From Candidatus Hodarchaeota archaeon (lineage in GTDB: Archaea > Asgardarchaeota > Lokiarchaeia > Sigyniarchaeales > SOKP01), in the NCBI GenBank assembly GCA_048887225.1, contig JBHLJY010000004.1:32001-96000 (forward strand): DNA of 64,000 bases, written 5' to 3'. Of this stretch, positions 20,737 to 46,489 are shown piece by piece (positions within the stretch are counted from its first letter, which is position 1; the number at the start of each line of letters is the position of its first letter). Under the pieces are notes generated by a model that saw only the letters and a list, made by a program, of their open reading frames with translations, did not search any database and was not told the DNA's origin. Both the position numbers and the translations under genes were made by a program.

Positions 20737-20764
20737 ATCATATATCTGTTCTAAGATATAAGAT
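20737..20764 (+). repeat. 28-bp 11-6-11 dif-like site, copy 1
   Basis: ATCATATATCT-GTTCTA-AGATATAAGAT; arms are 10/11 inverted; lies between convergent 3' ends. Confidence 0.7.
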
Positions 20765-20812
20765 AGAAATAAAAAAAAAAGAAAAAGGATTTAATTAAAT
20801 TTACACACTTGA

Positions 20813-23800
20813 TTATTCTTTTTTTGGAAGATTAATTATGCCTTTCTTGATTAATACAACAACAGCTACACCACCACCTAGGCTAGCAAGAATAACTACA
20901 ACTATAATTACCATTACTATGCCTATATCCTCCTCGTCGTCGTCATCATCGTCATCTCCGGCAGCAGGACTAGGACCAGGACTAGGACCAGGAGATACAT
21001 CTTGACCATCATCATAAATAGGTTTAGTATCTTCACTTCCTCCACCACCAGGAATAGGATGTAGAGTATTCCCTATGCCATCACCATCTGGATCGCTGCC
21101 CGTATAATTGTCCCAATAATTACCAATGATACCATTGTCCCATCTATTATCGGTACCATCGTCAATGGCATGGACTGTATTATTTCTAAAATAATTCAAA
21201 TAAAAAGTGTTATAATTGCTACCTCCATTGAGAAAAATTCCTCTTCCTTCATTGAAACAAATCTCATTTCCTGTAATATTATTGTTAGTGGATACATCAA
21301 AATTTATCCCGTAGCGTGTGTTATTGTTGATTATGTTTTCAGTAATGTTGTTCCATTCGGCTGAACTTAAATATATACCATCATAACCAGTACCAGAATC
21401 TCCATTATTAGTTATGTTGTTTTCTGAAATGCAATTATCATCGCTGTTTAATATACATATTCCATGCTCCTCATTATATTTTATTTCATTTTTAGAAACT
21501 GTGTTATTATGACTATCATCTTGTAAATATATCCCGTACTGTGTGTTTTTGTTTGCAGTGTTTCCCGAGATAGTGTTGTCAGTGCAATTATTATATAAAT
21601 ATATCCCTGCATTTTGGTTTGATGTCATGTTGTTGCATGCGGTATTGCCTGAGATGGTGTTATCGTCGCAATATGAATATAAATAAATTCCGTATAGGGT
21701 GTTGTCGTTTGCGGTGTTTCCCGAGATGGTGTTATCGTCGCACTCACCTTCTAAATATATCCCGTACTCTTTGTTGTTGTTTGCGGTGTTTCCCGAGATA
21801 GTGTTATCAGTGCAATTATTATATAAATATATTCCGTACTGTGTGTTGTTGGTTGCGGTGTTTCCCGAGATTGTGTTATTGTCACAATAATCTTCTAAAT
21901 ATATCCCGACAAATTGGTTTGATGTCATGTTGTTGCATATGGTGTTTCCCGAGATCATGTTGTTATCGCATTCATCCCATAAATATATCCCATAATCTTC
22001 GTTGTCGTTTGCGGTGTTTCCCAAGATGGTGTTATCGTCGCACTCACCTTCTAAATATATCCCGACATTTTGGTTTGATGTCATGTTGTTGCATACGGTA
22101 TTTCCCAAGACAGTGTTGTCGTCGCAATCATCCCATAAATATATCCCATAATCTTCGTTGTCGTTTGCGATGTTTCCCGAGATTGTGTTATCGTCGCACT
22201 CACCTTCTAAATATATCCCGTACTGTGTGTTGTTGTTTGCGGTGTTTCCCGAGATTGTGTTATCGTCGCACTCACCTTCTAAATATATCCCGTACTGTGT
22301 GTTGTTGTTTGCGGTGTTTCCAGAAATTGTATTATTCTTGCAACGGTATCCTAAATATATCCCTCTTAATTGGTTTGATGTCATGTTGTTGCATACGGTG
22401 TTTCCCGAGATTGTGTTGTCATCGCTATATTCATATAAATATATCCCGTACTGTGTGTTGTCGTTTGCGGTGTTTCCAGAAATTGTATTATTATTGCAAC
22501 GGTATCCTAAATATATCCCTCTTAATTGGTTTGATGTCATGTTGTTGCATGCGATGTTTCCCGAGATTGTGTTGTCATCGCAATCATGCCATAAATATAT
22601 CCCATAATCTTCGTTGTCGTTTGCGATGTTTCCCGAGATTGTGTTATCGTCGCACTCACCTTCTAAATATATCCCGTACTGTGTGTTGTTGTTTGCGGTG
22701 TTTCCCGAGATGGTGTTGTCGTCGCACTCATTTTCTAAATGTATCCCTCTTAATTGATTTGATGTCATGTTGTTGCATGCGATATTGCCTGAAATGGTGT
22801 TATCGTCGCAATATGAATATAAATATATCCCGCTTTCACTATTATCGTTTGCGGTGTTTCCCGAGATGGTGTTATTATCACTATACCATAAATATATCCC
22901 GCTTTCACTATTATCGTTTGCGGTGTTTCCCGAGATGGTGTTATTATTACTATTATATAAATATATCCCGCTTTCACTATTATCGTTTGCGGTGTTTCCC
23001 GTTATGGTATTATTGTCACATTCATCCCATAAATATATACCGAAATCGTTGACGTTTGCGGTGTTTCCCGATATAGTATTATTGCTGGAATAATGCATAT
23101 AAATGCCATAATTCTTATTATATGACATGTTACACATTGAGATAGTATTATTATTGCTGTATAATAATGAAATTCCAATTGATCCATGAGAAACATTTAA
23201 GTTTGAAATTATAGAATATCTACAGTTGGCAAGGAATACTTCTCCAGCATTCGTGAAGTCTGCTAGTTCCAATCCGATCTTATTGACATAGTAATAAATT
23301 GGTTTTCCATTTATAGTATTTGTAGTATCAATATGGTGTGATGAACATTGTTCAAGATTACCAATAATGAATAAACCTGACTCAATCATAATATTTCCCG
23401 AGACAGTGTTATTATTACTCTCCTCTAGATATATTCCATACCTAGTGTTGTCGTTTGCGGTGTTTCCCGAAATTGTATTATTATCACAATTATATAAATA
23501 TATCCCGCTATCCCTGCTGAAATTTGCGGTGTTTCCCGTTATGGTATTATTTTCGCAATAATATAAAGATATCCCTCTATATTGGTTTGATGTCATGTTG
23601 TTGCATGCGATGTTTCCCGAGATTGTGTTGCTATTGCAATCAAAATATAAAAGTATCCCATTATCGTCGTTGTCGTTTGCGGTGTTTCCCGAAATTGTAT
23701 TGTTATCACAATTATATAAATATATCCCGCTATCCCCGTTGAAATTTGCGGTGTTTCCCGAGATTGTGTTGTTATCGCAATTTATTCTTAGATATATCCC

Positions 23801-24862
23801 GCACCAGTTGTTATTGTTTGCGGTGTTTCCCGTTATGGTATTATTGTCGCATTCATCTTCTAAAAATATCCCATAAATCCCGTTTTTGTTTGCTGTGTTC
23901 CCCGAGATTGTGTTGTTATTGCAATTTATTCTTAAATATATCCCTCTATCTTGGTTTGATAATGAATTTTTATTGCATGCGGTGTTTCCCGAGATTGTGT
24001 TGTTATCGCAATTATCATATAAATATATCCCGTCCCCTCTGTTATCGTTTGCGATGTTTCCCGAGATTGTGTTGTTATCGCAATTTATTCTTAAATATAT
24101 CCCATAAAAATCGTTGAAATTTACGGTGTTTCCCGAGATTGTGTTGTTGGTGCATTCATCCCATAAATAAATCCCGCTACCCCCGTTTAAATTTGCGGTG
24201 TTTCCCGAGATTGTGTTGTTATCACAATTATCCAATAAAAATATCCCTCTATCTTGATTTGATGTCATGGTGTTACTTGCTTTATTTCCCGAGATTGTGT
24301 TGTCGTCGCAATCACCTACTAAATATATCCCGTACTCGGTGTTATCGTTTGCGGTGTTTCCCGATATCGTGTTATTATCACAATCATATAAAAATATCCC
24401 GTTTTTATCGTTGTTTGAACAATTGTTAATCAATAAGGCTCCGTTATTTGTGTTTTCCAATTTGATTCCCGCATTCCCCCAATTTGCTCCCGAATTGTAA
24501 ATAGTACAATTTTCAATCCTAAAATAATCGTTTTTGGAATTATTTATAAAAATACCGCTTCCCGTAGGGGAACTGCTTGCGTCGATAGTAACGTTTTCAA
24601 TAACATAGGGCTTGCTCCACGATCCATCGCCACTAAACCAACCCTTACCAGTCGCATCCGACCAATTGCCGTCAATATATATGAAAGATTCAGTATAGGC
24701 TCCCGATTTTTTCGGATTTTTTAAATTAGTTACGTCTAGAATTTCCCCGCTTCCTTCATTATTTAATTGCTGATCGCTGAAATTTACGTTTCTAATGATT
24801 ATTATAGCGAAAACCATTCCTATCGCTATTAAGATTAATATTTTTGATTTATTCGATTTCAT
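20813..24862 (-). CDS. Large surface protein with NosD/CASH parallel beta-helix repeats and a C-terminal TM anchor
   Basis: N-terminal hydrophobic segment; more than 35 GIYL..(C)DNNTISGNTAN.N repeats; GNYWDNY.G.D.DGDGIG; acidic linker plus TM. Confidence 0.9.
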   Translation of the reverse strand: MKSNKSKILILIAIGMVFAIIIIRNVNFSDQQLNNEGSGEILDVTNLKNPKKSGAYTESFIYIDGNWSDATGKGWFSGDGSWSKPYVIENVTIDASSSPTGSGIFINNSKNDYFRIENCTIYNSGANWGNAGIKLENTNNGALLINNCSNNDKNGIFLYDCDNNTISGNTANDNTEYGIYLVGDCDDNTISGNKASNTMTSNQDRGIFLLDNCDNNTISGNTANLNGGSGIYLWDECTNNTISGNTVNFNDFYGIYLRINCDNNTISGNIANDNRGDGIYLYDNCDNNTISGNTACNKNSLSNQDRGIYLRINCNNNTISGNTANKNGIYGIFLEDECDNNTITGNTANNNNWCGIYLRINCDNNTISGNTANFNGDSGIYLYNCDNNTISGNTANDNDDNGILLYFDCNSNTISGNIACNNMTSNQYRGISLYYCENNTITGNTANFSRDSGIYLYNCDNNTISGNTANDNTRYGIYLEESNNNTVSGNIMIESGLFIIGNLEQCSSHHIDTTNTINGKPIYYYVNKIGLELADFTNAGEVFLANCRYSIISNLNVSHGSIGISLLYSNNNTISMCNMSYNKNYGIYMHYSSNNTISGNTANVNDFGIYLWDECDNNTITGNTANDNSESGIYLYNSNNNTISGNTANDNSESGIYLWYSDNNTISGNTANDNSESGIYLYSYCDDNTISGNIACNNMTSNQLRGIHLENECDDNTISGNTANNNTQYGIYLEGECDDNTISGNIANDNEDYGIYLWHDCDDNTISGNIACNNMTSNQLRGIYLGYRCNNNTISGNTANDNTQYGIYLYEYSDDNTISGNTVCNNMTSNQLRGIYLGYRCKNNTISGNTANNNTQYGIYLEGECDDNTISGNTANNNTQYGIYLEGECDDNTISGNIANDNEDYGIYLWDDCDDNTVLGNTVCNNMTSNQNVGIYLEGECDDNTILGNTANDNEDYGIYLWDECDNNMISGNTICNNMTSNQFVGIYLEDYCDNNTISGNTATNNTQYGIYLYNNCTDNTISGNTANNNKEYGIYLEGECDDNTISGNTANDNTLYGIYLYSYCDDNTISGNTACNNMTSNQNAGIYLYNNCTDNTISGNTANKNTQYGIYLQDDSHNNTVSKNEIKYNEEHGICILNSDDNCISENNITNNGDSGTGYDGIYLSSAEWNNITENIINNNTRYGINFDVSTNNNITGNEICFNEGRGIFLNGGSNYNTFYLNYFRNNTVHAIDDGTDNRWDNGIIGNYWDNYTGSDPDGDGIGNTLHPIPGGGGSEDTKPIYDDGQDVSPGPSPGPSPAAGDDDDDDDEEDIGIVMVIIVVVILASLGGGVAVVVLIKKGIINLPKKE
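21540..24400 (-). repeat. Internal near-identical ~66-78 bp coding repeats of the beta-helix gene
   Basis: Recurring gtttcccgaga..gtgtt(a/g)tc and tttgatgtcatgttgttgcat; tandem 69-bp duplication around 22172-22320. Confidence 0.85.
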
Positions 24863-25331
24863 TTTTTTTAAATTTTTTTTTAAGATTTTAGATGATCAAA
24901 TGTTTGTATTTCAAATTTAATGATCATCAATAGTTCAACAATCTTAAATTTTATATTTAAAAGGATCTGGTAAATTTTTGAAGCATTAAATTTTCCAAAT
25001 TTAATTTTAATTAAATAAATTAAAGATATTAACCCATTTTAAAGACTAGAGCAAAGATTTAAGCACGAAACGGTAAATTCTAATAAATTCCAATAGAATT
25101 ATTTGATACAAAATGATACAAAAAATATTTTTGTGGTATCATAATAATAACAAATCAATCGCTTTTTGTTTTTGTGGGCACATATAAATTAAAAATTGAA
25201 TATAGTACATTAACATTTTATATAAGGATTATATAATAAATGTCAATATTAAGGCTAAAACATTGATTTTGAACAAAAACATCTTATCGTTTTTTTTAAA
25301 AGACCTTAATAATCAAATTGAAAATCAAGAA

Positions 25332-25359
25332 ATCACATATTTGTTCTAAGATATAAGAT
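25332..25359 (+). repeat. 28-bp 11-6-11 dif-like site, copy 2
   Basis: ATCACATATTT-GTTCTA-AGATATAAGAT; 26/28 identical to copy 1, same orientation. Confidence 0.7.
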
Positions 25360-25465
25360 TCACTAAGCTTAACCTTTCAAAATAGCAAAAAAAAATTATC
25401 AGTAATGATTATAAAGTCTTGTTATTATATGAATATTATAAATTATCTTTAAATTTTCAATTAAG

Positions 25466-26374
25466 ATGTCAATCGCACTCCAAAGATGTCCCAGATGCGG
25501 AAACGAAAATCCCGCAGATAGTTTTGTTTGCTCCTTCTGCGGTAAAAGATTAAAAATGGAATCTATTGAAAATTTTTTTCTTTTTCGTCGAATTGAAGAG
25601 GAATGGGTAACACCACTTCCATGGTATATGAAAATTTATTATCTTTTTAGAGATCCCTCTCGTGCGTTCCACGATATCAATCACAAGAGAAGTGCAGCTC
25701 CTGGTTATATTATTCTATTATTAAATTCATTATTATGGGGTTTTATGGGTTTAGCTTTTATCTCACATTTTAGATTTAGCCCCATTTCGACGGCATTTAT
25801 TTATGCAATATCGTTTTTTATAATTTTTTTTATATTTGGACTACTTTTCAATTTTATATTTTATACAATTCTTACTTGGTTGTTTAGTAAAGGTGCTAAT
25901 TACGCCGTTGGATTTTCAGAAAGATTAGATATTCGTTTTGGAGGTGAAAAAGAAAAAATAGAGCTTCATAAAAAATCAGAGATGAGCCCTTTTTCTATTT
26001 ATAAAGGAGGCACGCTATTACAAAAACAAGCGGCTTATAAATATAAAATGCTTTTTTGCGCTTTTACTCCTTTTTTATTGGTTAATGCTATTAAAGTTAT
26101 AATCATTCTTATTGCATTCCCTACTATTAGGGTTGATACTGAAAGCGAACTGCCCCTAGATATTTTTAACAGAATATTTAGATCTCCAGTTTGGACTGTA
26201 CTCGATGTTATTGACGCTTTAACTATGGCAATTTGGGTACCTATTTTAATGGCTTTAGCCATAAGAGACTTATCCAATTCATCTACACTCCGCGTTTTAA
26301 TTTCATCACTGATAATAGGTGCATCTGTTGCAGTGCTGTTCTACTTTCTTAGACCTACTCTTTTTGGAAGTTAA
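25466..26374 (+). CDS. Zinc-ribbon + Yip1-family membrane protein
   Basis: CPRCG...CSFCG; LFRDPSRAF.DI followed by about five TM segments. Confidence 0.75.
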   Translation: MSIALQRCPRCGNENPADSFVCSFCGKRLKMESIENFFLFRRIEEEWVTPLPWYMKIYYLFRDPSRAFHDINHKRSAAPGYIILLLNSLLWGFMGLAFISHFRFSPISTAFIYAISFFIIFFIFGLLFNFIFYTILTWLFSKGANYAVGFSERLDIRFGGEKEKIELHKKSEMSPFSIYKGGTLLQKQAAYKYKMLFCAFTPFLLVNAIKVIIILIAFPTIRVDTESELPLDIFNRIFRSPVWTVLDVIDALTMAIWVPILMALAIRDLSNSSTLRVLISSLIIGASVAVLFYFLRPTLFGS

Positions 26375-26442
26375 AGCTAAATTTATTAACTGATAATCCC
26401 ATCATTATTTAATTAAATTGAATTTCTCAAAGTATTATTTAA

Positions 26443-27090
26443 ATGAAAGAAGATAAAGCAAATTTCGCTAAAATCGAATCTGAATTATTCGCACTAATTA
26501 ACTCTATAATAAATCTTTATATTAAATATCAAAAAGGCTCAATTAACGAAAACTTCTTTCAAAAAGCCGTTAAAGACGCAATGAATGGTTTATTGAGTAT
26601 AAATCTTTATTTAAAAAAAAGAAATATTTCACTTACCAAATTTTTAAATGGTATGAATCTTCTCGACGATTATGATAAAGTTATGAAAATTGTTAATAAT
26701 ATTTCTGATTTAGATTCTTACGATGAATTTAATACAGTTCGAAATGGAAATAAATTTTATTCTGAGAAAAGACTAAGGAGTTCTATATTAGAACTGCCTG
26801 GAATTGCTTCAGAGATAACCTCTTCATTTATCACGCTTATCGATGCGTTAAAATTAGAAGGGCAAAGCCAATATCTTATGATTAGACTGCTGAATGAGTT
26901 AAAGGCTAATTTTAAAAAATTTAAATTTCCAGGATTAAAAGATATTCGACTTAAAATAAAAAAAATTTATAGAGACGCTTTAAAGAATACTGCTAATCTC
27001 GTCAGTGATAATCAATTTAGAGAAGAAATAGCAGATCGGTTGTATTCAGTTTTGAAAGAATTTCAGCAAAAAATCAGTGTAAAAACTTAA
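26443..27090 (+). CDS. Vps28-like ESCRT-I subunit
   Basis: SELFALINSI..LY.KY.KG.I (Vps28 N-terminal pattern) and ASEITSSFITLIDALKL (Vps28 C-terminal FIT.MD.LKL signature). Confidence 0.78.
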   Translation: MKEDKANFAKIESELFALINSIINLYIKYQKGSINENFFQKAVKDAMNGLLSINLYLKKRNISLTKFLNGMNLLDDYDKVMKIVNNISDLDSYDEFNTVRNGNKFYSEKRLRSSILELPGIASEITSSFITLIDALKLEGQSQYLMIRLLNELKANFKKFKFPGLKDIRLKIKKIYRDALKNTANLVSDNQFREEIADRLYSVLKEFQQKISVKT

Positions 27091-33148: not shown

Positions 33149-33151
33149 TTT

Positions 33152-33917: not shown

Positions 33918-34103
33918 TTAAAATCTGCAACATAATCTTCGACCATAGTCGAGATTGCTCTTCAAATATTCATTCTCCAGTATTTTCATAACTTTATCAT
34001 ACTCGAGATTTAACTTTTTTACAATATCTTCTATCTCAATACCAGGTGTAGATATCAATCTAAAAATCTCTTTTTTTACATCTTCATTAACTTCTTCAGT
34101 CAT
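33918..34103 (-). CDS. Small HTH-like protein ending in LCCRF
   Basis: IEDIVKKLNLEYDKVMKIL resembles a helix-turn-helix; 61 aa. Confidence 0.5.
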   Translation of the reverse strand: MTEEVNEDVKKEIFRLISTPGIEIEDIVKKLNLEYDKVMKILENEYLKSNLDYGRRLCCRF

Positions 34104-34163
34104 TGTTTTTTAGATAATAATTTCTATATTTTAATATTTAGCTTAATTTTTAAAAATAAAATT

Positions 34164-35228: not shown

Positions 35229-35355
35229 ATACTTTAACCTCAGTGCTTATTTTGAAATATTGAAAAATAAATAAGAATTTTATTTTTATCATCAATAGGA
35301 CTCTTATTAATTATGAAAAAACCATAGGTTAATTAAATTTATATTACTTATAGAT

Positions 35356-35955: not shown

Positions 35956-36048
35956 TATTTTAAATATAAAAATTTCATATAAATTTAAAAAATATTAAAA
36001 TAGGTTTATTAATTAATTAAAAAAAACCATCTGAATTATGTAGAAACC

Positions 36049-36621
36049 ATGAATGAAGAAATTTCGGAAAGATTAGATGTTAAAGCTAAAGAAAAAACAC
36101 TTTTACAGACTAATCTGACAAAAAGAGTAGCAACGGCTGGAATATTTATTGCGGTTGGGTTAATTTTAAGTTACTTAAATCCCTTTGCCTACTTTACAAT
36201 TTTTGGGACTAAAATCAATCCATTCGCTCACTTCATTAATGCAATGACAGGAGTTTTAATTGGACTATCATTTGCTTGTGTAGTTGCATTAGGTATCGCA
36301 ATTTTACGTTTTGTTCTTGGAATAGGTACAATCCACGCTTTCCATGGGGGGATCTCTGGAGCTGTTGTTGTTGGCCTATCGGCTTATATTTTACGAAAAA
36401 AATCTCCTAAACATGTAGAATTAGCAGCGTTTACTGAACCAATAGGTACAGTATTTATTGGAGGTACAATTGCTCAATTAATCGCACCTCTCGGAGGCAT
36501 TGAGGGTTTATTTATTTATTGGGGATTATTTGCTATGAGCTGTATACCTGGCTGCGTTTTAGGTTATTTAATGTTAAGAGTCCTAAAAAGAGCAGATATC
36601 ACATGGGAAGATTACTTTTAA
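36049..36621 (+). CDS. thiW: ECF transporter S component ThiW
   Basis: PFAHFINAMTGVLIG, GTIHAFHGG, EPIGTVFIGG; adjacent to thiN. Confidence 0.85.
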   Translation: MNEEISERLDVKAKEKTLLQTNLTKRVATAGIFIAVGLILSYLNPFAYFTIFGTKINPFAHFINAMTGVLIGLSFACVVALGIAILRFVLGIGTIHAFHGGISGAVVVGLSAYILRKKSPKHVELAAFTEPIGTVFIGGTIAQLIAPLGGIEGLFIYWGLFAMSCIPGCVLGYLMLRVLKRADITWEDYF

Positions 36622-36643
36622 TAATTATTCCACTTTTTTTTTA

Positions 36644-37237
36644 ATGTTTATGAAATTCCGCGAGAATTTAGATTTCAACGAGTTTATTGGTCATCAAACT
36701 CTATTATATGGTGAAACAGATACAAAAAAGACCTATTATACAGCAAGATTTGTTCAATTTCTTCTAAAAGTTAAAAAAACTAACCCTAAAGATATAACCA
36801 TCTTAGATTTTGCCCCTAAATTGTTTAAATACTATGGTATAAGGATTGGAGGGAAAATCGAGGATTATTTTCCACAGAGCTTAAAATGTAATAATCTTGT
36901 TTTTAAAGGAGAAATAATACCACCCCGGCTAAGGGCAAGTAATAAAAGTGAGCTATATAATAATACCTGTAAAAACTACAAAAAAACTCACGAAATTTTA
37001 AAATTTTATAACGAGAATCCAACTCAAGTTTTAATAATTAACGATATTTCTATATATCTTCATCTTGGAAGTAAAAAATTTTTATTAGAAACAATTAAAA
37101 AAGCAGATACGTTTTTTGGAAATACTTATTACGGTTCTTTTATAGAGCGTAATTTTGCTAGTCTTTTTAGCTTGAAGGAAAAGCGTGTCGTTGAATCTCT
37201 CATTAAAAAAATTGAAAAGTCTTATTCTACGGATTAA
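36644..37237 (+). CDS. Hypothetical protein with a degenerate P-loop
   Basis: TLLYGETDTKKT, ILDFAP, IINDISIYLH. Confidence 0.6.
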   Translation: MFMKFRENLDFNEFIGHQTLLYGETDTKKTYYTARFVQFLLKVKKTNPKDITILDFAPKLFKYYGIRIGGKIEDYFPQSLKCNNLVFKGEIIPPRLRASNKSELYNNTCKNYKKTHEILKFYNENPTQVLIINDISIYLHLGSKKFLLETIKKADTFFGNTYYGSFIERNFASLFSLKEKRVVESLIKKIEKSYSTD

Positions 37238-37282
37238 ACACCTTCTAATAGTAAATTAAGGAGGAATAAAGCTTTTTGTCGT

Positions 37283-37597
37283 TTAGCCAATTTCCATCCC
37301 TTTATATTTTTGTTCTTGAACACTCATTATCCATTTTCTTATATTTTTTACCATTTTAAACACATCTGGTAGAGGACGAATTGATTTATTGACAAATTCA
37401 ACACCTTTCATAGAAATAGCATAATACTTCTTTCCATCTTTTTTAAGTGATTTTTCTAAATACCCTTTCTTAATTAACCTATTTATTTCTGTATAAACTG
37501 AAGATTTTCTATTCAAACCTTCTCTAATTTGCCTTTCCGACAATGGTGCTGAATAAAACAACACATATATAATCTTCTCTTCTGTTGTCCCAAGCAA
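37283..37597 (-). CDS. Winged helix-turn-helix protein
   Basis: PLSERQI...KSSVYTEINRLIKKGYL...YYAISMKG. Confidence 0.75.
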   Translation of the reverse strand: MLGTTEEKIIYVLFYSAPLSERQIREGLNRKSSVYTEINRLIKKGYLEKSLKKDGKKYYAISMKGVEFVNKSIRPLPDVFKMVKNIRKWIMSVQEQKYKGMEIG

Positions 37598-37731
37598 ATT
37601 TGTTCATCTCAAAAAAAAAATCACTCATTCTTTTTCAATTTCTTCTTTAATTAATTCTTTATTTTATAGCAATTTATACTTATATATTTAAAAAATAAAT
37701 TTAAAACTATAATAATCAAGATGATGATTAT

Positions 37732-39294
37732 ATGAATCGGACTGAAACTGACTCTGAGCCCCCTTTAGAATTTACATTAGATAGAAAAAAAATAATAGCA
37801 AATTTAATGGAATTAATACCAAAAATGAAAGAACTTAATAAGAAATCTAAAGAGATCTTACCAACAATTCAAAAACCAAAATTGCAAGTTATAGCACCTG
37901 ATTCAAATACGATAAAAAATGATTTAGAAAAGATTTGTAGCGTCCCCCACAGGAGGATTGGAACAGAAGAAGCTCATGAGATTGAAAATTTTATTGAAAA
38001 AACATGTAGAAAATTAGGGCTTATTAATGTCAAAAAAGAAACATTTGAGATTATAAATTGGGTTGCGACTAATTGGAAGATATTAATTAAAGCAAATAAT
38101 GAGATTATTGAAATTCCATGTTTCTATGTTTTAAATACTGAATTTACAGATAAAAATGGGATTACTGCGCCTCTAATATATGTAGGAGCTGGTTCAAAAA
38201 AGGATTTTAAAAAAAAAGATGTTAATGGAAAGATTGTAGTAGCAGATATAGAATTCCCTACTCTACCATTAGGCAAATTACTAAAAATAGCAGAACCATA
38301 TTATATCGCTGATCCCACAAATACAATTGCTGATACAACAGAAATTATTCTAACTTTTGCTCTTACAAACTTTCCACCACAATCTTTAGGTGGAAAACCA
38401 AGAGAAGATTCAGTATATTGGCGAGCAGTACGTAGAGGTGCTTTAGGATTAATTCTGATCTTACGTGATGCTCCTACTAATATTAATTCTCATTGGGGGC
38501 CTTATGATGGTTCATTCAAACCTGTTCCTGCTTTATATGTTGGGAAATATGATGGAATGAAGGTTAAAGAATTGGTTCAAACAGAAGCCTCTCAAGGTAC
38601 TATAATCCTTAATGGATATAAAGAAATCAGTAAAGCAAACAATATATGGGGGATCTTACCTGGTCAATCAGAAGAAATGATAATGGTCTCATCTCATACT
38701 GATTCTGCATTCAAAGGAGCTTCTGAAGATGGTACAGGAGTAGCTATGATTCTTGCTCAATTAAGAGCATGGTCAAAAATTCCTAAAGAGGAAAGACCTA
38801 AATCTTTATTATTTGTTTTGACAGCAGGTCATCTTTACGGAGGTATTGGTGCAGAAACATTTGCGAAGAAATACAGAGATAGTTTATTAAGAAATGTTTT
38901 AGTTGATATAAATCTTGAGCATATGTGTGCTAAAGAGGTTGAAGAAGACCCAGAAACTCATAATTATCGATTTACAAACAACCTTGCATTAGGAGCAGTG
39001 TTTTTAACTCATAATGAAACCTTAGTTGCTCATACGATAAAAGCATTCAAAGAGCATAAAATAGAGCGTATGATTTTAATTCCAGAAAACTTCTTCGCTA
39101 CTCCTGCAATTGGAGAAGCAGGACATTTTACCAGTTATAGCGATTTAAAAATTATTCATTGGATACGATCGCCGTATTATCTTCTAACAGCAGAGGATAC
39201 TTTAGATAAAATTGCCATAGATAAATTACACCCAACTGCTCAATGTGTGACTGATTTAATTAATTCATTAATGCAGCTATCAACAAAACCTTAA
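37732..39294 (+). CDS. M28-family peptidase with PA domain
   Basis: HRRIGT, PA insert (DVNGKIVV), SSHTDS, EDGTG, DINLEH; the usual EE motif is replaced by GH. Confidence 0.8.
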   Translation: MNRTETDSEPPLEFTLDRKKIIANLMELIPKMKELNKKSKEILPTIQKPKLQVIAPDSNTIKNDLEKICSVPHRRIGTEEAHEIENFIEKTCRKLGLINVKKETFEIINWVATNWKILIKANNEIIEIPCFYVLNTEFTDKNGITAPLIYVGAGSKKDFKKKDVNGKIVVADIEFPTLPLGKLLKIAEPYYIADPTNTIADTTEIILTFALTNFPPQSLGGKPREDSVYWRAVRRGALGLILILRDAPTNINSHWGPYDGSFKPVPALYVGKYDGMKVKELVQTEASQGTIILNGYKEISKANNIWGILPGQSEEMIMVSSHTDSAFKGASEDGTGVAMILAQLRAWSKIPKEERPKSLLFVLTAGHLYGGIGAETFAKKYRDSLLRNVLVDINLEHMCAKEVEEDPETHNYRFTNNLALGAVFLTHNETLVAHTIKAFKEHKIERMILIPENFFATPAIGEAGHFTSYSDLKIIHWIRSPYYLLTAEDTLDKIAIDKLHPTAQCVTDLINSLMQLSTKP

Positions 39295-39522
39295 TCGCGC
39301 TCTTTTTTAATAATAATTTGAAGATTTAATAAATTTTAGAATTATTATTGAAATATCGTTTTTAAATAATGTTTTAAAACTGAATCTATTTAGTCTTACT
39401 CACTTTATTTTTTTTTTAAAAATTTTATTGTCAAACATTAACTTTTTAATAAGATATTTTAACAGATAACTTATCTTTTATTATGAACTTTTTTTTATAG
39501 TTTCCTTTTTATAATTTTTTTA

Positions 39523-39768
39523 ATGTTAGATGAAATTGACTATATGAAACCATTGGAAAATTATAATTTAAAAATTAGATATATAAATGGACAAAAATTA
39601 TTAAAGGATATTCTGCATAAATTTAATCAAGAAAGTGTAATGAAGGATTTCTTAGAGGAGATTGAGGGCTTTATAAAAGGTATTCATGAAGTTTTTCCTA
39701 GATATTCAAAAGAAATAAAAATGCAATGTGAAAAAATACATCATTTTTTAAACTCAGAATCAGTCTAA
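39523..39768 (+). CDS. Hypothetical protein
   Basis: 81-aa ORF, no motif. Confidence 0.4.
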   Translation: MLDEIDYMKPLENYNLKIRYINGQKLLKDILHKFNQESVMKDFLEEIEGFIKGIHEVFPRYSKEIKMQCEKIHHFLNSESV

Positions 39769-39827
39769 TGCTTTTTAAATTTTTTTTTTCTGATTTCTAA
39801 ATAATAGTTTTTAATCTTTTCTTTCTA

Positions 39828-41729
39828 CTATAAAATTGGTAGTTTTACTGTAAATGTACTACCCATTTTTCTTCCTCCAGATTCAGCCCAAATATGACCT
39901 CCATGTAAATCAATGATTTCCTTACAGATATATAAACCAAGGCCTGAACCCTTTCTATCAACATATTCTAATCCTTCTCCAAATCTCTCTATTTTTCCAA
40001 ATCTGGTGAATAATAGATTCATTTCTTTTTTAGTTAATCCTATACCCGTATCACTTACTGAAAAAATAACCCAATCCTCTTGTCTCCATAAACTTATATC
40101 AATTTTTCCATTAGGTGGCGTATTATTTATAGCATTTGACAAGAGATTTGTAATTACTTCTCCAATTCTCTTTTTATCTATATTCAAATATAATGCTTCG
40201 GGGAGATTCAAATTTAGTGAAAGTTTTCTATTAATAAGTAAATACTTCATATCTTGAGAACTTTCTCTAATTAATTCACTTAAATTAAGTTTTTCTTTCT
40301 TGACCTCCATCTTATTATCTTCAATTCGAGATACATTTAGTAATTTTGCTACTAGTTCCTTTAATCTGGAGCCACCTTTATTAATCATTTGAATTATTTC
40401 TAATGCTTCTTTTCCAATTTGATCTTTATAAACTGTTGTAAGAAGTTCTGACCCGCTTATAACTGGTATTAAAGGAGTTTTTAATTCATGTGAAACCCTC
40501 GAGATTAAATCTTTCCGAATTTGTTCGAGTTCTTTTAATTTTTCGAATTCTTCTTGAATTAAAAGTTCTGCTCTCTTTCGCTCAGTAATATCTTGTGCTA
40601 TAAACTGTACTAATGTTTTATTTCCAATTTTTATTAAAGAGCCACGGAGATTTACCCAAATAAAACCTCCAGCTGACCTATATAAAGGAAATTCAATCGA
40701 TTCGTTTTTATCACCTTCAAGTATTTTTTTAAAATAGTATGCAAGTGAAGTTATATGTGCTTTATTTTTCTCATTTAACGAAAATATTTCCTTAAAGTTT
40801 TTTCCGAGATAATCATCTATTTTATGGATACTAAGAAAATGACTAGTGGCACTATTACAGGCAATTAAATTTCCATTTAAATCTAAAAGTCCTATGGAAT
40901 AAGGAGAACTTTCGAATAAATGTCTAAATTTTATCTCAGATTCTTTTAACTTTTGTTCAGCTTTTTTCTCATCAGTAATATCTTGTCCTATAAATTGTAT
41001 TAAGGTTTGGTCTTCTATATTTATTAAAGAACTATTGAGACTTATCCATTGAATACTTTTATTAGATCTAACTAAAGGAAATTCAAAAGATTCCGTAGTT
41101 TCTCCATTAACGTTTCTTTTTATTTGATCTAATATTATTGGGATTATTGGTATTTCCTCTTCTTGTATAGAGAAGATTTCTCTAATATTTTTACCGATTA
41201 AATCATCTCTCGTACGCGAAGTAAGAAAATCATTGACGGCAATGTTTATATCTAAAATATTACCCTCTAAATCTAGTATTCCTATAAGAAATGGTGAGCT
41301 TTCAAATAAGTGTCTATATTTTTCTTCACTTGCTTTGAGTTGCTTTTCTGCTTTCTTTCTCTCTGAAATGTCTCTAGCGATACCCAAAACAGCATATATT
41401 TCATTATTTTCTTTCAAAGGGATGCCAATAGTTTCCACATAAATAGTATTACCAGTTTTACTTTTTAATTCATATTCAGTAAGTGTGGATTGTCCTCCTG
41501 TCGTTAAAGTTTCATTTAACTGGGTAAAAGCCTTTTTCAGTTGAATTGTATCTATTAAGTCACCGAAGGAAAGGTTATTAATATCTTCTATAGTATAACC
41601 TAAACTTCTTAATGCGGCATCATTCGCATCAAGGAAATTCCCTTTAAGATCAAAAACATAAATTAAATCTAATGTTTGTTCAAATAAATCTTTGTATTTC
41701 TCTCTTATTTCATCTTTTTTATATGTCAT
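39828..41729 (-). CDS. PAS-domain sensor histidine kinase (3 PAS + HisKA + HATPase)
   Basis: PAS repeats ending DISERK/DITDEK/DITERK; SHELKTP, NLLSNA, DTGIG, GSGLGL. Confidence 0.95.
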   Translation of the reverse strand: MTYKKDEIREKYKDLFEQTLDLIYVFDLKGNFLDANDAALRSLGYTIEDINNLSFGDLIDTIQLKKAFTQLNETLTTGGQSTLTEYELKSKTGNTIYVETIGIPLKENNEIYAVLGIARDISERKKAEKQLKASEEKYRHLFESSPFLIGILDLEGNILDINIAVNDFLTSRTRDDLIGKNIREIFSIQEEEIPIIPIILDQIKRNVNGETTESFEFPLVRSNKSIQWISLNSSLINIEDQTLIQFIGQDITDEKKAEQKLKESEIKFRHLFESSPYSIGLLDLNGNLIACNSATSHFLSIHKIDDYLGKNFKEIFSLNEKNKAHITSLAYYFKKILEGDKNESIEFPLYRSAGGFIWVNLRGSLIKIGNKTLVQFIAQDITERKRAELLIQEEFEKLKELEQIRKDLISRVSHELKTPLIPVISGSELLTTVYKDQIGKEALEIIQMINKGGSRLKELVAKLLNVSRIEDNKMEVKKEKLNLSELIRESSQDMKYLLINRKLSLNLNLPEALYLNIDKKRIGEVITNLLSNAINNTPPNGKIDISLWRQEDWVIFSVSDTGIGLTKKEMNLLFTRFGKIERFGEGLEYVDRKGSGLGLYICKEIIDLHGGHIWAESGGRKMGSTFTVKLPIL

Positions 41730-41982
41730 CTTAATCTATTTTTCTTGACTCCTAAAAAGTTAATGATAAAAGTAAAATTTATGCTTTTCCTTTTTTAAGG
41801 TATTTATAGATTTTAGTTGCTCTAAGTTATTCGTCGTCATTTTTCGACTTTCTCCTATGACATATCTGTAAAAAACTTTATATATAATGGAAAAAAAAAA
41901 AAAATTAGCTAATAATGGTTAAGGGTGATTATTTATCACATTTGTACAAGAGAAAGGATTATATCAAAAACTATATCAAAAT

Positions 41983-42183
41983 TTGAAAGAAATATCTAAA
42001 CTTCGAACAGATTTAATTAAATTCTTAGAATTAGTTCTGGATTTATTTTCGTATAAAAATTCTACTACTCAAGAAAAGGATATTTCTAATAAGATTTTAT
42101 TCTATATTAAATCTTTCAACGAGAGCCATCCTATAAATATGTTTAGTGAATTAAATCAAGAATTATTAAAAGAAACCGTTTAA
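41983..42183 (+). CDS. Hypothetical protein
   Basis: 66-aa ORF; frame is open back to 41929, just after a GGTGA motif. Confidence 0.4.
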   Translation: MKEISKLRTDLIKFLELVLDLFSYKNSTTQEKDISNKILFYIKSFNESHPINMFSELNQELLKETV

Positions 42184-42248
42184 TATTCTAAGAAACTTTG
42201 AAAATAGAAGTAGAAGATAGTTAATAAATAATTAGGGATAGAATTAAA

Positions 42249-42419
42249 ATGAATAAATTATTTGATGAAATTAAAGAAGGATTGAGAAAAGCATTAAATG
42301 AGCAAGAATCCCGCACTAATTTCGATGGTATAGTTTGCCAAAATTGTGGTTGTTATAACCATAGAGCAAGAAAGGGACAACCATGTGGTAATTGTTTAGC
42401 AAAATTGAATTTTTTTTAA
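42249..42419 (+). CDS. Small zinc-ribbon protein (56 aa; not in ORF track)
   Basis: MNKLFDEIKEG...VCQNCG...PCGNCLAKLNFF*. Confidence 0.65.
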   Translation: MNKLFDEIKEGLRKALNEQESRTNFDGIVCQNCGCYNHRARKGQPCGNCLAKLNFF

Positions 42420-42584
42420 TCATTGTGCTAATAATTTCTATCTCATTTATTATAGAACAATTGAAGCTCTAGATTAAATTTTTATACTTCTTTTTCTTTT
42501 GAGATATCGTTTAGTTAAGTTAACTATTTAAACTTATTCAACCAATATTTAAAAAACATATCTAATTATATATTCAAAAATAAT

Positions 42585-43994
42585 TTGGTAATAGTTATGG
42601 ATAATAAAGATGTTGAAATATTACACTCAAAGAAGAGTATGGCTTCATACGGTTTCGGAAAATTCGTAAATGAATTTTTAAACATGGCCTTTGGAGCATT
42701 TGTCTTTTTCTACTACGAGGCCGAGATTGGTCTGAGTGTTTGGCTCACTGCTTTTGGATACATCATATTTGCAATATGGAATGCAGTCAATGATCCTTTT
42801 ATTGGTTATTTAGTTGATCGCCCCTTCAATTTCACAAAAAAATGGGGTAGAAGATTTCCTTGGGTTTTCATAGGAGGAGTTCCGTGGATAATTTGCTATT
42901 TACTTCTCTTTACACCTCCCGCCGTAGATCCAAAAGGAGAAGGAGCATGGTTAATCTTTTTATGGTTATTAATTATGACTTGCTTATATGACACATTTTA
43001 TTCTATTTTTAATGTAAATTTTTATGGACTTTTTCCAGATAAATTTCGTTCAGAAAATGAACGCAGGGATGCCGCAGGAATTAGCACAATGGTGGGAACT
43101 TTTGGAGTAGCTCTAGGGGCAATTATACCACCATTATTTATAGTTTTTGGGAATAAACAGTCATATATAATTCAGGCAGGAGTAGCTATAATTGTATGCA
43201 TAATAGCCTTAGCATTAACTATTCCGGGGTGTCGCGAAGATCAAGAGCGAATTGACTGCTATCTCGAAAAGTGTGAAGAAGGATTAGAACGAGGATCCTT
43301 TTTTAGAACTTTTAGAACTAGTTTAAAGCATAAGAATTTTATTGCATATACGCTTGCTTTCTTGTTTTACTATTCTTTAGTACTTTGTATGATAGGATCA
43401 ATTCCATACATGGCAAGGTATAGATTAGAAAGAAAAGCGGGAGATATCATATTAATAATGGCCGGACTTCTTATTGGATCTTTTTGTTCAATACCCTTAT
43501 GGACAATTATTGCCCGTAAAATTAAGGATGACCGTAAAACGATAATCATTGCCGCAATCGCTATGATAATCTTTACAGGTCTTCTTATCTTTATAAACGA
43601 TTATTATATACTTTTCATCGGAATGCTAATATGGGGTACTAGCCTTGGAGGTTTTTGGGTTATGCTTTCTCCTAATTTTGCTAATGTTATTGACGAATCC
43701 GTAATATTGACGAGTAAAAGAGAAGAGGGTTTATATAATGGCATCAATACTTTTGTTGCTCGTGCGTCCCTTATTATTCAAGCTGTAAGTTTTGCGGTTG
43801 TACACACCCTAACTGGATTCTCCGAAGGAGCGGCAACACAATCAGCCGAAGCAAAATGGGGAATTCAAATTCATTTTGCCTTACTCCCAATGATTTTTAT
43901 TATCATTACAGCTGTGATATTTATTAAATTCTTTGACCTTACACCGGAAAAAGTAAAATCTAATAAAGAAAAACTAGTTGATATAGGAATTTAG
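42585..43994 (+). CDS. MFS transporter, GPH (MelB/MFSD2-like) family
   Basis: WNAVNDPFIGYLVD...WGRRFPW; VIDE...REEGLYNG; about 12 TM. Confidence 0.92.
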   Translation: MVIVMDNKDVEILHSKKSMASYGFGKFVNEFLNMAFGAFVFFYYEAEIGLSVWLTAFGYIIFAIWNAVNDPFIGYLVDRPFNFTKKWGRRFPWVFIGGVPWIICYLLLFTPPAVDPKGEGAWLIFLWLLIMTCLYDTFYSIFNVNFYGLFPDKFRSENERRDAAGISTMVGTFGVALGAIIPPLFIVFGNKQSYIIQAGVAIIVCIIALALTIPGCREDQERIDCYLEKCEEGLERGSFFRTFRTSLKHKNFIAYTLAFLFYYSLVLCMIGSIPYMARYRLERKAGDIILIMAGLLIGSFCSIPLWTIIARKIKDDRKTIIIAAIAMIIFTGLLIFINDYYILFIGMLIWGTSLGGFWVMLSPNFANVIDESVILTSKREEGLYNGINTFVARASLIIQAVSFAVVHTLTGFSEGAATQSAEAKWGIQIHFALLPMIFIIITAVIFIKFFDLTPEKVKSNKEKLVDIGI

Positions 43995-44049
43995 ATTTCT
44001 AAATCTATTCAGAGAATTCTTTAGATAAAAAATCAATTTCGGTTAGATT

Positions 44050-44202
44050 TTACTTTCTTTTTTTTATTTTAATAGAGTTAAATGGTAGCTTTACACCACA
44101 ATAATGACAAATATTTTCCTCATTTTCTTTAAATTCAGAGATTAGGGAACCACAATAAAAACAAAATCTTAACTTTTTTTTGTTTGCTTTAATATATATC
44201 AC
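44050..44202 (-). CDS. Small zinc-ribbon protein (~50 aa; not in ORF track)
   Basis: ...LRFCFYCGS...ICHYCGVKL...; start is GTG, or a downstream ATA/ATT after AGGTGAT. Confidence 0.55.
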   Translation of the reverse strand: MIYIKANKKKLRFCFYCGSLISEFKENEENICHYCGVKLPFNSIKIKKRK

Positions 44203-44402
44203 CTATACGTAAATTATAATATCTTTAATTAGATAAAAGGGATTTGAATATTAAAATAAACTGTAGTCCAATTATTGTCTTAAATCAATGAATATAAAAG
44301 ATATACTTAATTAATATAAGCATTTTCACTCAATTATTTTTAAAATATAACATTTTTAAGTAAAGACTTATTAAGTTTTTAATAATGGCCAAAACCTAAG
44401 AA

Positions 44403-44430
44403 ATCTTATATCTTGAACTAAATATAATCT
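44403..44430 (-). repeat. 28-bp dif-like site, copy 3 (variant spacer)
   Basis: Minus strand AGATTATATTT-AGTTCA-AGATATAAGAT; right arm identical to the other copies. Confidence 0.6.
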
Positions 44431-44567
44431 ATTTAAAAATTATTATTATTGAATATACTTCTGTTTTCTCAATTTCACCAAATTATTGCATATATATGTA
44501 GATAATAAGTCCTTTTTTATATCCGCATTATTAAAAGAAAACCAAAATCTTACATTTTGGTAAAGGA

Positions 44568-45167
44568 ATGAAATATAATAGTATCATTAAAAATACTTTT
44601 ATTTATTTATTTTTGACAGCTGCATTTTTACTAATACATGAAATAGCACATTGTATAACAGCTATTATATTTGGTGGAGAATTTAGAGGAATTTGGTTAA
44701 CTTCCTTTGTTGGTTTTGGAAAAAAATCAAATCAAGTTAGTACATTTAGCGTTTATGCTTATACTAATTATAATGATAGCATTGTATGTTATAGATGTGT
44801 GAAAGTAGCTGGTAGTTTAACTACGATATTATCTGCTTCAGTGGTTAATTATATCTCAAAAAAAAAGAAAAATTTTATTGTGTTTTTAACGACTTCTAAT
44901 GTGATTTTTTATGAAGTATTTTATTGGGCTGTTTCTCCATTATTAAAATTTGGTGATGCTTATCAATTATTACAATCTTTAAAAATAACTAATTTAACTG
45001 CAATTTTATTGTTTTCATTAATATTTTTTCTTGTAATGACTTGGTTATCAATATCATTAACAAGTACGCTTTTAAAATTGTTAGATTCCTCTTCTGGTAA
45101 ATTTAATGCCTATGATCCTAAGCAGACCAAGAAATTACGAGAAGAGGGAGCTTTTAGAGCAATTTAA
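44568..45167 (+). CDS. Membrane protein, M50-like metallopeptidase fold
   Basis: TM-embedded HEIAH, VAG, GDAY. Confidence 0.65.
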   Translation: MKYNSIIKNTFIYLFLTAAFLLIHEIAHCITAIIFGGEFRGIWLTSFVGFGKKSNQVSTFSVYAYTNYNDSIVCYRCVKVAGSLTTILSASVVNYISKKKKNFIVFLTTSNVIFYEVFYWAVSPLLKFGDAYQLLQSLKITNLTAILLFSLIFFLVMTWLSISLTSTLLKLLDSSSGKFNAYDPKQTKKLREEGAFRAI

Positions 45168-45208
45168 TGAATATGGAAATGTCCAAGAGAAAATATAAAA
45201 GATAGTGC

Positions 45209-46255
45209 TTATCTTTTATGAACTTTTTTCCTCATAATTAAGATTGTAATTATAGCAATTAGTGAGCCTGATAGTATTGATAAGTTATATCCGTTAATAG
45301 ACTCGAAATCAAAATCATTATCATCGTCATCATCATTAATTTTTAGAGGAGGTGTATACGGGACTGTAGCATTCACAAGGACATAATTCATTGCCGCAGC
45401 GCAAGCTTTAGTTGCATTGTTTAAATTAGCTTCTATGCGATTATAATACTCTTGATGTTCTAGCGTGTCTGTTGATCGGTCGGCGAAAGTATTATTCCAA
45501 TTACTAAAGAAGTTTTCGTAAAGCCAAAATGCGTTGTGAGCGTAATTGTGGGTACTATCGTTATAAGTATCCCACGCTAAGTCTACAGCTGCATCATATG
45601 GTTTTTTTGAACCGATGGTAAAAGGAAAAATTTTAAAAAATTCTTCCATATCGTCAGCTTCATCTGTTCTTGTTTTTATATAACCTTCTAATTGCGTATG
45701 ATTGTCGTCAAAATTTACAGTATCATAAGGTGGCTCATAATTTTCGGCTACATGGCAGAAAACAGCCATATCAGAGATATAATGCGTCATCGCTCCAAGG
45801 TAGAAGGCAGCTAGATCGTATTTTTCCTCATCCAAATTAACACATGCAAGATCTCCCATAGATTTCGCTCTAAGAGCTGCATCATCTTCATAAACAGAAC
45901 CATCTTGGTGTATATATATATGGTGCCAGCTAAAATCACCGAATCCTATAATTGATTTTCCGTCTAACGTCATTGAAACTCCAGAGTTATCGGGAGCTTC
46001 GGTTCCCACAAAATATATCAATTTTCTATCATTTAACCATTGCCACCTAGTCGCGTTGTCGTTCAGCAGAGCCGTTAGTGAAACATTAGCAACCCAGTCA
46101 TGACCAGCAAAATCATTGTTATAATCATAACTACTTGAGTCGTCGGCATAACTTCCATTAGGTAAAGCTACGCTTTCGTGAGTTAGTGCTGTAAAAATAA
46201 TTATTACTAACAAAAAGCTAACTGGTAATAAAATAAAATTTCTCTTATTTCTCAT
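45209..46255 (-). CDS. Secreted zinc-dependent phospholipase C/nuclease-family protein with C-terminal membrane anchor
   Basis: Signal peptide; HDW, APD, HH, LGAMTHYISD...H, H..LE; C-terminal INGY + TM + RKK (Loki-CTERM-like). Confidence 0.8.
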   Translation of the reverse strand: MRNKRNFILLPVSFLLVIIIFTALTHESVALPNGSYADDSSSYDYNNDFAGHDWVANVSLTALLNDNATRWQWLNDRKLIYFVGTEAPDNSGVSMTLDGKSIIGFGDFSWHHIYIHQDGSVYEDDAALRAKSMGDLACVNLDEEKYDLAAFYLGAMTHYISDMAVFCHVAENYEPPYDTVNFDDNHTQLEGYIKTRTDEADDMEEFFKIFPFTIGSKKPYDAAVDLAWDTYNDSTHNYAHNAFWLYENFFSNWNNTFADRSTDTLEHQEYYNRIEANLNNATKACAAAMNYVLVNATVPYTPPLKINDDDDDNDFDFESINGYNLSILSGSLIAIITILIMRKKVHKR

Positions 46256-46461
46256 AGTAATACGATTCTTTCTTATTTATTAAATCCCTTTAATAATTAA
46301 ATTATATAATTATTGATTAATTGATAACTAGCGCTTTAATAACAAATTAACATTTTTTTAAAATCTGGGGTATGTTGCGAAAATAAGATATGCAACACAC
46401 AAATATACTTCTTAAAAAAATAGTTTGAAATTTGGCTTTTTTGAATAGGTAAACTTAGAGA

Positions 46462-46489
46462 ATCTTATATCTTAGAACAGATATGAGCT
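46462..46489 (-). repeat. 28-bp dif-like site, copy 4
   Basis: Minus strand AGCTCATATCT-GTTCTA-AGATATAAGAT; similarity to copy 2 extends about 30 bp further (46431-46461 vs 25360-25390). Confidence 0.7.

Follow-up and report, generated by a model that had tools for sequence, protein, structure and literature searches.

The window analysed here, a stretch of 64,000 nucleotides at positions 32001-96000 of contig C4 in the metagenome-assembled genome (MAG) of a Loki-type Asgard archaeon, carries four copies of a 28-bp site, which we call S, in which two 11-bp arms flank a 6-bp spacer (11-6-11). Two of the copies lie on either side of a gene for a beta-helix surface protein and two lie in a variable region upstream of adk. 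The genome is referred to as G000, its contigs by C-numbers, and relatives by other G-handles. The G000 assembly comprises 3.27 Mb in 49 contigs with 30.5% G+C and is 98% complete; it lacks SSU rRNA, and the close homologues of its RtcA come from Promethearchaeota (Loki-type Asgard) MAGs. Its closest relative, G002 (QM1B.325, labelled a Thorarchaeota MAG), has an RtcA that is 92% identical and is 93-96% identical to G000 in DNA (~95%) across syntenic stretches, and therefore serves as a near-isogenic comparator. An Rfam scan of the window returned no family above threshold. The four sites are as follows.

20737-20764, + strand: S1, with left arm ATCATATATCT, spacer GTTCTA and right arm AGATATAAGAT
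25332-25359, + strand: S2, with left arm ATCACATATTT, spacer GTTCTA and right arm AGATATAAGAT
44403-44430, - strand: S3, with left arm AGATTATATTT, spacer AGTTCA and right arm AGATATAAGAT
46462-46489, - strand: S4, with left arm AGCTCATATCT, spacer GTTCTA and right arm AGATATAAGAT

An earlier note on this DNA had described four 28-bp sites of 11-6-11 layout, and all four are present where, and on the strands on which, it had placed them. Its account of their make-up also stands: the right arm is identical in all four window copies, the spacer is GTTCTA in three of them (S3 having AGTTCA), and the left arm is a degenerate inverted copy of the right, with which it pairs at 10, 8, 8 and 9 of 11 positions in S1, S2, S3 and S4, respectively. 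We predict that the four are copies of a protein-binding dyad.

The sequences adjoining S, in the window and elsewhere in G000, fall into a few classes, namely L-A (promoter type, 18 copies) and L-B (terminator type) on the left, and R-A and R-B (terminator types) and R-C on the right, the last of these carrying a second coding copy of the C-terminus of the 466-aa gene next to it (C4:108902-110302). L-B and R-B are mutual inversions of one another, which extends the dyad to CTTAGA..arm-spacer-arm..TCTAAG. As had been noted earlier, S1 lies between convergent 3′ ends, those of rtcA (19502-20569) and of the beta-helix gene, which ends at 20813; it has a T-rich, terminator-type L-B module to its left and R-A to its right. 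S2 lies upstream of the beta-helix gene, with the tail of a promoter-type L-A module on its left and R-B on its right. S3 marks the right edge of an insertion that carries a gene for a major facilitator superfamily (MFS) transporter and is missing in G002, and S4 is found upstream of adk, where its adjoining R-B module occupies 46422-46461.

The earlier note had suggested looking for the motif through the genome around accessory genes, and S does form a genome-wide family at accessory-gene borders, often in arrays. A genome scan gave about 53 good copies in G000, the consensus of which is ATYATMTATYT / RKTYYA / AGATATAAGAT. Because the scan was anchored on the right arm, the apparent invariance of that arm is partly a matter of ascertainment. 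The copies are clustered at C2 90.8-112.4 kb, C6 94.7-105.6 kb, C7 117.4-119.9 kb, C28 16.8-26.9 kb, C10 7.4-16.1 kb and C4 110.9-113.2 kb, and several contigs terminate in a copy (C1:201, C6:53, C26:51). The spacer is AGTTCA in 37 of the 53 copies and GTTCTA in 15, and the arms pair mostly at 6-10 of 11 positions. Hardly any variation is seen at positions 7-9, 11, 14 and 17-27; the variable ones are 3, 6, 12, 13, 15 and 16, so that four of the six centre positions vary.

The exact 17-mer is found three times in the window, and exact copies of the 16/17-nt core number 24 in G000; each of 40 relatives has at most one, and the reversed control is never matched. When the 28-bp palindrome was searched with at most three mismatches, 24 copies were found in G000 and one or two in six of nine congeners, the counts elsewhere in the family being at control level; the palindrome was absent at this threshold from the congeners G001, G004 and G008. 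The right arm is unchanged in the copies of G002, G003, G006, G007 and G009 despite other spacers (ATTCTA, AGTCCA, GTCCTA and TATTCA). The right end of the C2 array is common to G000 and G002, and a G002 contig ends within this array, so that the count of S in G002, and probably in other fragmented MAGs as well, is an underestimate; most of the C1 region has no close match in the G002 assembly. Beyond these genomes, genuine S sites are present on four short metagenome contigs, none of whose listed open reading frames is recombinase-like (no Pfam scan of them was made), and the layout of site, cassette and site recurs on the environmental contigs L123, L149 and L188. Viral contigs gave 42 single matches, of which only that on L104 passed the palindrome screen, with 8 of 11 arm positions, and we treat these matches as being at chance level. 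A cluster of a 12-mer in G012, a genome of another genus, was rejected as S, since it is the promoter region of tandem paralogues. There (G012 contig C7:19898-22865) AGATATAAGAT occurs four times, without a dyad, in identical upstream regions of tandem small paralogues. Its distance to the start codon is ~55-65 nt, and in this setting it resembles an ordinary promoter element. In the literature we found no paper describing the S site.

The arrays have a regular anatomy. A single gene, encoded on the opposite strand to S, occupies each interval, and in the orientation of that gene the order is S, a conserved promoter/leader stretch of ~165 nt, a variable ribosome-binding region, the cargo gene, an oligo-T terminator module and the next S. 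The ~165-nt stretch contains a TTTAAATA box 44 nt from S and a leader that includes the palindrome CCATAAATTTATGG, in many cases with a short frame, MGEISNKK; array cassettes thus appear to carry their own TTTAAATA promoter box and leader. The distance between S and the TATA box is fixed at 44 nt in the 18 L-A copies because the whole module is a repeat. The leader palindrome and the short frame may together be a common regulatory element. In the C2 leader of G000 (L001:5300-5345), CCATAAATTTATGG, a perfect palindrome of 14 nt, overlaps the start of the MGEISNKK... frame, and in the cassette at C2:105186-105683 this frame is fused to the cargo gene. The cargo consists mostly of small proteins without Pfam matches, together with a GNAT protein, a class IV aminotransferase, an Fe-alcohol dehydrogenase and a DUF998 protein.

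Alignments of paralogous cassettes begin exactly at one S and stop exactly at the next, even when 400 nt of extra flank are supplied, as in the comparison of C2:109334-110000 with C6:96628-97272 (81.6%). All combinations of left flank, spacer and right flank occur except L-A with GTTCTA, which indicates that the spacer stays with the left flank and that the point of reassortment maps to the conserved arm or its edge. At C6:94742 a footprint is seen at the spacer edge itself, where an inverted L-A module meets the conserved arm by way of its TTTCTA. Both pairs in the window are in direct orientation (+,+ and -,-), as are most neighbours in the arrays. As single strands, S copies fold only weakly (-0.2 to -3.2 kcal/mol, no better than shuffled sequence), which argues for recognition of S as double-stranded DNA and against mechanisms of the attC, IS200 or REP kind.

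At the first pair of window sites, the comparison with relatives defines an inserted block and its cargo.

20658-25430, no strand assigned: beta-helix insertion block of 4,773 bp, holding S1, the beta-helix gene, S2 and their modules; missing in five relatives
20813-24862, - strand: beta-helix gene, encoding a 1349-aa NosD/right-handed beta-helix surface protein, the cargo of this block

Five relatives have the Yip1-like gene directly after rtcA, ~90-130 bp away. In G002, window positions 14001-20657 align to contig C78:2540-9181 and positions 25391-25493 to C78:9141-9244; since the two flanks map to overlapping positions on one contig, the 4,773 bp between 20658 and 25430 are an insertion in G000. 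The block is bounded by a 22-bp direct repeat, the left copy of which (20636-20657, TTATAAGATCTTGTTATTATAT) is identical to the empty site of G002, whereas the right copy (25409-25430) has two mismatches. S1 begins 79 nt inside the left repeat, and S2 ends 49 nt short of the right one. Because the right copy matches a paralogous module on C6, it came with the insert and not from the target. The repeat opens with a TATA-like run and ends ~35 nt before the start codon of the Yip1-like gene, and we interpret it as the stretch of that gene's promoter that runs from TATA to start. When the ends of the insert are joined, they reproduce a sequence that is contiguous at C6:97271-97420, which consists of S, R-B, the TATA-like stretch, the core, and a hairpin with its T-run. 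These junctions are most simply read as the trace of a circle, bearing the beta-helix gene, two S copies and a C6-type module, that recombined with the Yip1 promoter region by a crossover in 13-22 nt of near-identical sequence. Yip1 would have stayed expressed, owing to the insert's left-hand terminator and its outward promoter on the right. The hairpin-terminator module at the left end was considered as a general part of the system and ruled out, having only two copies in G000 and none in 30 relatives. The 3′ end of the beta-helix gene, encoding a membrane-anchor tail, is together with its terminator (20765-20892) 77% identical over 142 nt to C1:117468-117604, the end of another surface-protein gene, and the shared segment reaches a site in both cases. 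The beta-helix gene is thus truly accessory and S travels with it. The proposal in the earlier note that S1 and S2 bracket an accessory cassette holds as to the cassette, the block being missing from the rtcA-Yip1 spacer of the five relatives, but not as to the joints, which lie in the 22-bp repeat outside the sites.

The region of the second pair is organised differently.

42496-44439, no strand assigned: MFS insertion of ~1.95 kb, comprising the MFS_2 transporter gene (42585-43994) and S3; missing in G002
44568-45167, + strand: 199-aa gene without Pfam match; present in G002, with a synonymous divergence (dS) of 0.13
45209-46255, - strand: phospholipase C-like gene for a secreted protein, with a sub-threshold Zn_dep_PLPC match; its G002 counterpart has 60% protein identity
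37238-46755, no strand assigned: variable region of 9.5 kb, from a conserved 197-aa gene to adk, differing in content in every congener examined

Positions 34001-42464 are colinear with G002 at 93%, whereas 44483-46049 match it at only 80%. At the MFS insertion the homology on the left ends at 42495 and that on the right resumes ~10-50 nt past S3 (breakpoint between 44431 and ~44480), the alignments overlapping by at most 4 nt at the junction. A weak inverted half-site (12 of 17 positions, with a ~3% chance of occurring near the junction) lies at 42502-42518, at the far edge of the insert. Between G000 and G002 the four flanking genes have dS values of 0.12-0.22, and the 199-aa gene, at 0.13, shows ordinary divergence and is not a mobile unit with its neighbour. 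That neighbour, the phospholipase-like gene, compared with G002 contig C55:614-1711 has a dS of 1.33, about ten times that of the flanks, and a nonsynonymous divergence (dN) of 0.29, at 60% protein identity. From this divergence we read the phospholipase-like gene next to S4 as an allelic replacement; one breakpoint of it lies in the 41-nt convergent spacer at 45168-45208. The earlier note had taken S3 and S4 to bracket one cassette of these two genes, and the synteny in relatives that it had named in advance as counting against its proposal was found for this pair, in G002. S3 and S4 therefore do not enclose a single cassette; what differs from G002 is the indel of the MFS gene with S3 and the replaced phospholipase-like allele. 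The earlier note's description of the 199-aa gene as M50-like was not supported, no Pfam match being found, and its phospholipase-like assignment is matched by Zn_dep_PLPC but below the cut-off (24.4 versus 26.8 bits).

The DNA upstream of adk is a hot spot of such variation. In G004 the conserved 197-aa gene and adk lie 95 bp apart, and G001 and G008 carry other genes between them. At the position of S4, G002 has kept the R-B module and a decayed arm, followed by a different gene. A copy of S upstream of adk, in the same orientation as S4, is present in G006 and G009, whose Adk proteins are only 70-76% identical, and the DNA beyond this S differs among G000, G006 and G009. Core DNA adjoins the conserved arm and spacer directly in G006 (AAAGAAACCTT, followed by the adk leader, which is conserved), the break being exactly at the spacer edge. 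G008 contig C9 (L039:10380-10470) carries next to adk a homologue of the small G000 cassette gene C4:111204-111530. After this homologue come a T-run, CTTAGGTT and part of the promoter module, and no site separates these; this arrangement may be the scar of a lost site.

Two further comparisons with G002 concern contig C7. The C7 array (C7:115978-121565, four copies of S) is missing in G002, where the stop codon of the hydrolase gene is followed by the radical-SAM gene within ~10 nt. The island is bounded by an 11-nt repeat, and a second copy of the hydrolase 3′ end (C7:117202-117373) immediately precedes the first S. The duplication of this alpha/beta-hydrolase end spans at least 172 nt (C7:115746-117408), its second copy being 95.9% identical to G002 and the resident copy 93.5%. 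The closer similarity of the second copy to G002 suggests that the array arrived with flanking DNA of its donor. At C7:38058, colinearity with G002 stops at the R-B module's outer edge, ~90 nt away from S.

Three tyrosine recombinases were found in G000. One is XerA, which scores 238.8 bits against the NCBIfam NF040815 equivalog (cut-off 220) and is encoded at C25:18135-19061, beside orc1/cdc6; the second lies on C24, and the third is cut by the end of contig C7, its other half not being in the assembly. With integron-integrase models the three gave at best 106.6 against a cut-off of 265 and 59.8 against 435, in a MAG that is nearly complete. In search of dif, a scan with GATATAA-N6-TTATATC returned 117 loose matches and no clear dif site in G000. 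Among 11-6-11 palindromes with at least 10 of 11 positions paired, the best dif candidate is the perfect CATTCTTATAA TGGAGA TTATAAGAATG at C4:149593-149620, which is identical in G002 and shared only with it, hence not conserved across the family. A similar palindrome, CCGACTTATAA CCTAAA TTATAAGTCAG, lies at C24:21879, on the contig with a strain-specific integrase, and is a candidate dif or att site, likewise not conserved in the family.

Taken together, these observations lead us to a tentative reading, to which we give a little less than an even chance, in which S serves as the junction element of a cassette-type system of accessory genes in this Loki-type lineage and is probably a recombination site. 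S has a portable terminator on one side and, within arrays, a portable ~165-nt promoter/leader module on the other, the DNA that it flanks differs between genomes that are ~95% identical, and two footprints, at the G006 adk junction and at C6:94742, break exactly at the spacer. In the mechanism that we envisage, a site-specific recombinase, either XerA or an enzyme not yet recognised, would bind the arms of S and exchange strands at the spacer or the conserved arm. Within arrays it would excise, insert and reshuffle cassettes, while a new locus would be seeded otherwise, as proposed above for the entry of the beta-helix block into the Yip1 promoter through near-identity outside S, most simply as a circle.

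A number of results weigh against this reading. The insertion of the beta-helix block did not use S as its crossover. Both there and at C7:38058 the colinearity of G000 and G002 breaks ~50-90 nt from S, from which it follows that S and its module travel as a whole and that those events took place without a crossover at S. S is the only sequence common to unlike flanks, so that a homology-dependent exchange would also map to it, and its fixed position 44 nt upstream of the TATA box in 18 copies makes a regulatory role possible. As to the enzyme, no recombinase gene adjoins any array, and no serine recombinase or Y1 transposase (PF01797) was found in G000. The C24 and C7 tyrosine recombinases have no orthologues in congeners, including those that bear S, which leaves XerA as the only recognised recombinase common to all S-bearing genomes, and no evidence tying XerA to S was found.

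Among the known systems closest to S are the pdif modules of Acinetobacter plasmids, with which the earlier note had compared it. These are moved by XerC/XerD and have inverted flanking sites that resemble the host dif (PMC6449649, PMC7399989, PMC11705084), and dif and pdif sites have one well-kept arm, one looser arm and a variable 6-bp centre, the inner arm positions being best kept (PMC6449649). S shares with them a length of 28 bp, the 11-6-11 layout, uneven conservation of the arms, a variable centre and the bracketing of accessory genes, and in both cases the module holds no recombinase and a housekeeping Xer is the presumed actor. The analogy thus holds for the anatomy of the site and for the pattern of conservation across arms and spacer, but not for orientation, as S pairs and arrays are mostly direct whereas the sites of pdif modules are inverted. 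Unlike pdif modules, S cassettes are chromosomal, reside in an Asgard archaeon and have a conserved promoter, leader and terminator, and two mapped insertions were joined outside S; moreover, pdif uses XerC and XerD, while archaea have a single XerA. Archaeal Xer/dif itself serves the resolution of chromosome dimers (Cortez et al. 2010, PMC2958812; review PMC8371274). S resembles it in being an 11-6-11 inverted repeat in a genome that encodes a XerA equivalog. It differs in that dif is a single-copy site near the replication terminus whereas S is present in ~53 copies in accessory regions, and in that S-like palindromes are missing in three of nine congeners. Canonical archaeal dif arms have ATAA/TTAT next to the spacer, where S has TCT/AGA.

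The most serious rival, though one that we consider rather unlikely, is that S is a regulatory or architectural protein-binding site within a portable module of terminator, S and promoter, and that cassettes are shuffled by general recombination, homologous or at microhomologies, without a dedicated recombinase. The modules in question are dispersed, 100-250 nt long and 80-95% identical to one another. The constant 44-nt spacing between S and TTTAAATA and the conserved leader with CCATAAATTTATGG are what a regulatory module would show, and the 11-mer of G012 resembles an ordinary promoter element upstream of tandem paralogues. Insertion junctions in short homologies outside S (22 bp at the beta-helix block, 11 nt at C7), copies of gene 3′ ends beside arrays (the hydrolase end at C7:117202-117373 and the R-C flank) and the lack of a recombinase linked to arrays are likewise in keeping with general recombination. 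However, S1 lies between convergent 3′ ends with no promoter near it. The earlier note had named a fixed distance from promoters as the mark of a transcription-factor site; such a distance is found in the L-A copies, where it belongs to a repeat module, whereas S1 and others are located between terminators. In addition, unlike flanks are joined within 12-20 nt of identity, which is short for homologous recombination, the homology of cassettes ends exactly at S, both footprints break at the spacer, and a pattern of fixed arm and variable spacer is typical of recombination sites.

Less probable still, and in our view improbable, is that S is the terminal or subterminal sequence of a non-autonomous transposable unit, whether MITE-like or a passenger transposon, which is mobilised by a transposase encoded elsewhere with duplication of the target. 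The 22-bp direct repeat around the beta-helix block has the appearance of such a duplication, the MFS insertion has S3 at one edge and the weak inverted half-site at the other, and contig ends fall at S copies, as is usual for repeats. Nevertheless, the two 22-bp copies differ at two positions, and the right one, matching the C6 module, came with the insert; the beta-helix insert does not end in inverted repeats; and the lengths of the repeats vary among three events (22, ~11 and ~0-4 nt), so that neither the terminal inverted repeats nor the target duplication of fixed length that would mark a MITE or DDE transposon was found. S copies are for the most part directly oriented, a Y1 transposase was not detected in G000, and no transposase lies near the arrays.

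A single-strand hairpin element of the kind of an integron attC, an IS200/IS605 end or a REP/RAYT sequence is largely refuted and highly improbable, for although the 11-6-11 dyad, the intergenic and clustered placement of S and the reported enrichment of archaeal integrons in Asgard genomes (PMC9668308) fit it, the predicted hairpins are weak, S at 28 bp lacks a GTTRRRY/RYYYAAC core on either strand (by inspection), cassettes appear to bring their own promoters, and neither a Y1 transposase (PF01797) that would place S with IS200/IS605 or REP/RAYT elements nor a protein at integron-integrase cut-offs was found in G000. The likeness to integrons is nonetheless considerable at the level of the arrays. 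Archaeal integrons and clusters of attC sites lacking integrases (CALINs) have been described, and among archaea integrons are reported to be most frequent in the Asgard group (Ghaly et al. 2022, PMC9668308). In S arrays, too, most cassettes hold a single gene of unknown function, face the same way and are separated by a repeat that is typical of the species and at which cassette homology ends; the arrays form CALIN-like clusters without an adjacent integrase and encode small unknown proteins and a few enzymes. Integrons are defined by their attC sites and IntI. Unlike integron sites, S is only 28 bp long, with no R''/L''/L'/R' structure, no GTTRRRY core and weak single-strand folding; no IntI was found in G000, and expression would start from a promoter of the cassette itself rather than from Pc. 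The attC sites of integrons are 57-141 bp long.

Apart from the S system, the window encodes directly downstream of the Yip1-like zinc-ribbon gene a 215-aa protein (26443-27090) that matches Pfam VPS28, an ESCRT-I subunit (E 3e-6, 27.6 bits versus a cut-off of 24.5). This VPS28-like gene is syntenic in relatives and fits an Asgard genome.

How genes are gained and lost is poorly understood in Asgard archaea, the closest known relatives of eukaryotes. The window supplies two concrete cases, namely a locus that is occupied in one genome and empty in another that is ~95% identical to it in DNA, and, upstream of adk, a hot spot of insertion that three species share. A broader proposal, about which we are more doubtful than about the reading of S as a junction element, is that these sites belong to a gene-capture system of Loki-type Asgard archaea that is independent of integrons, in which self-expressing single-gene cassettes moved at a 28-bp site build strain-variable islands of surface and secreted proteins. 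If true, cassettes with their own promoter and terminator that can be targeted to a defined 28-bp site would also offer a handle for genetic tools. A short site at accessory-gene borders would, if the reading is true, represent a new route of gene flow in these archaea, most strongly so if S is a recombination site of XerA or of another enzyme.

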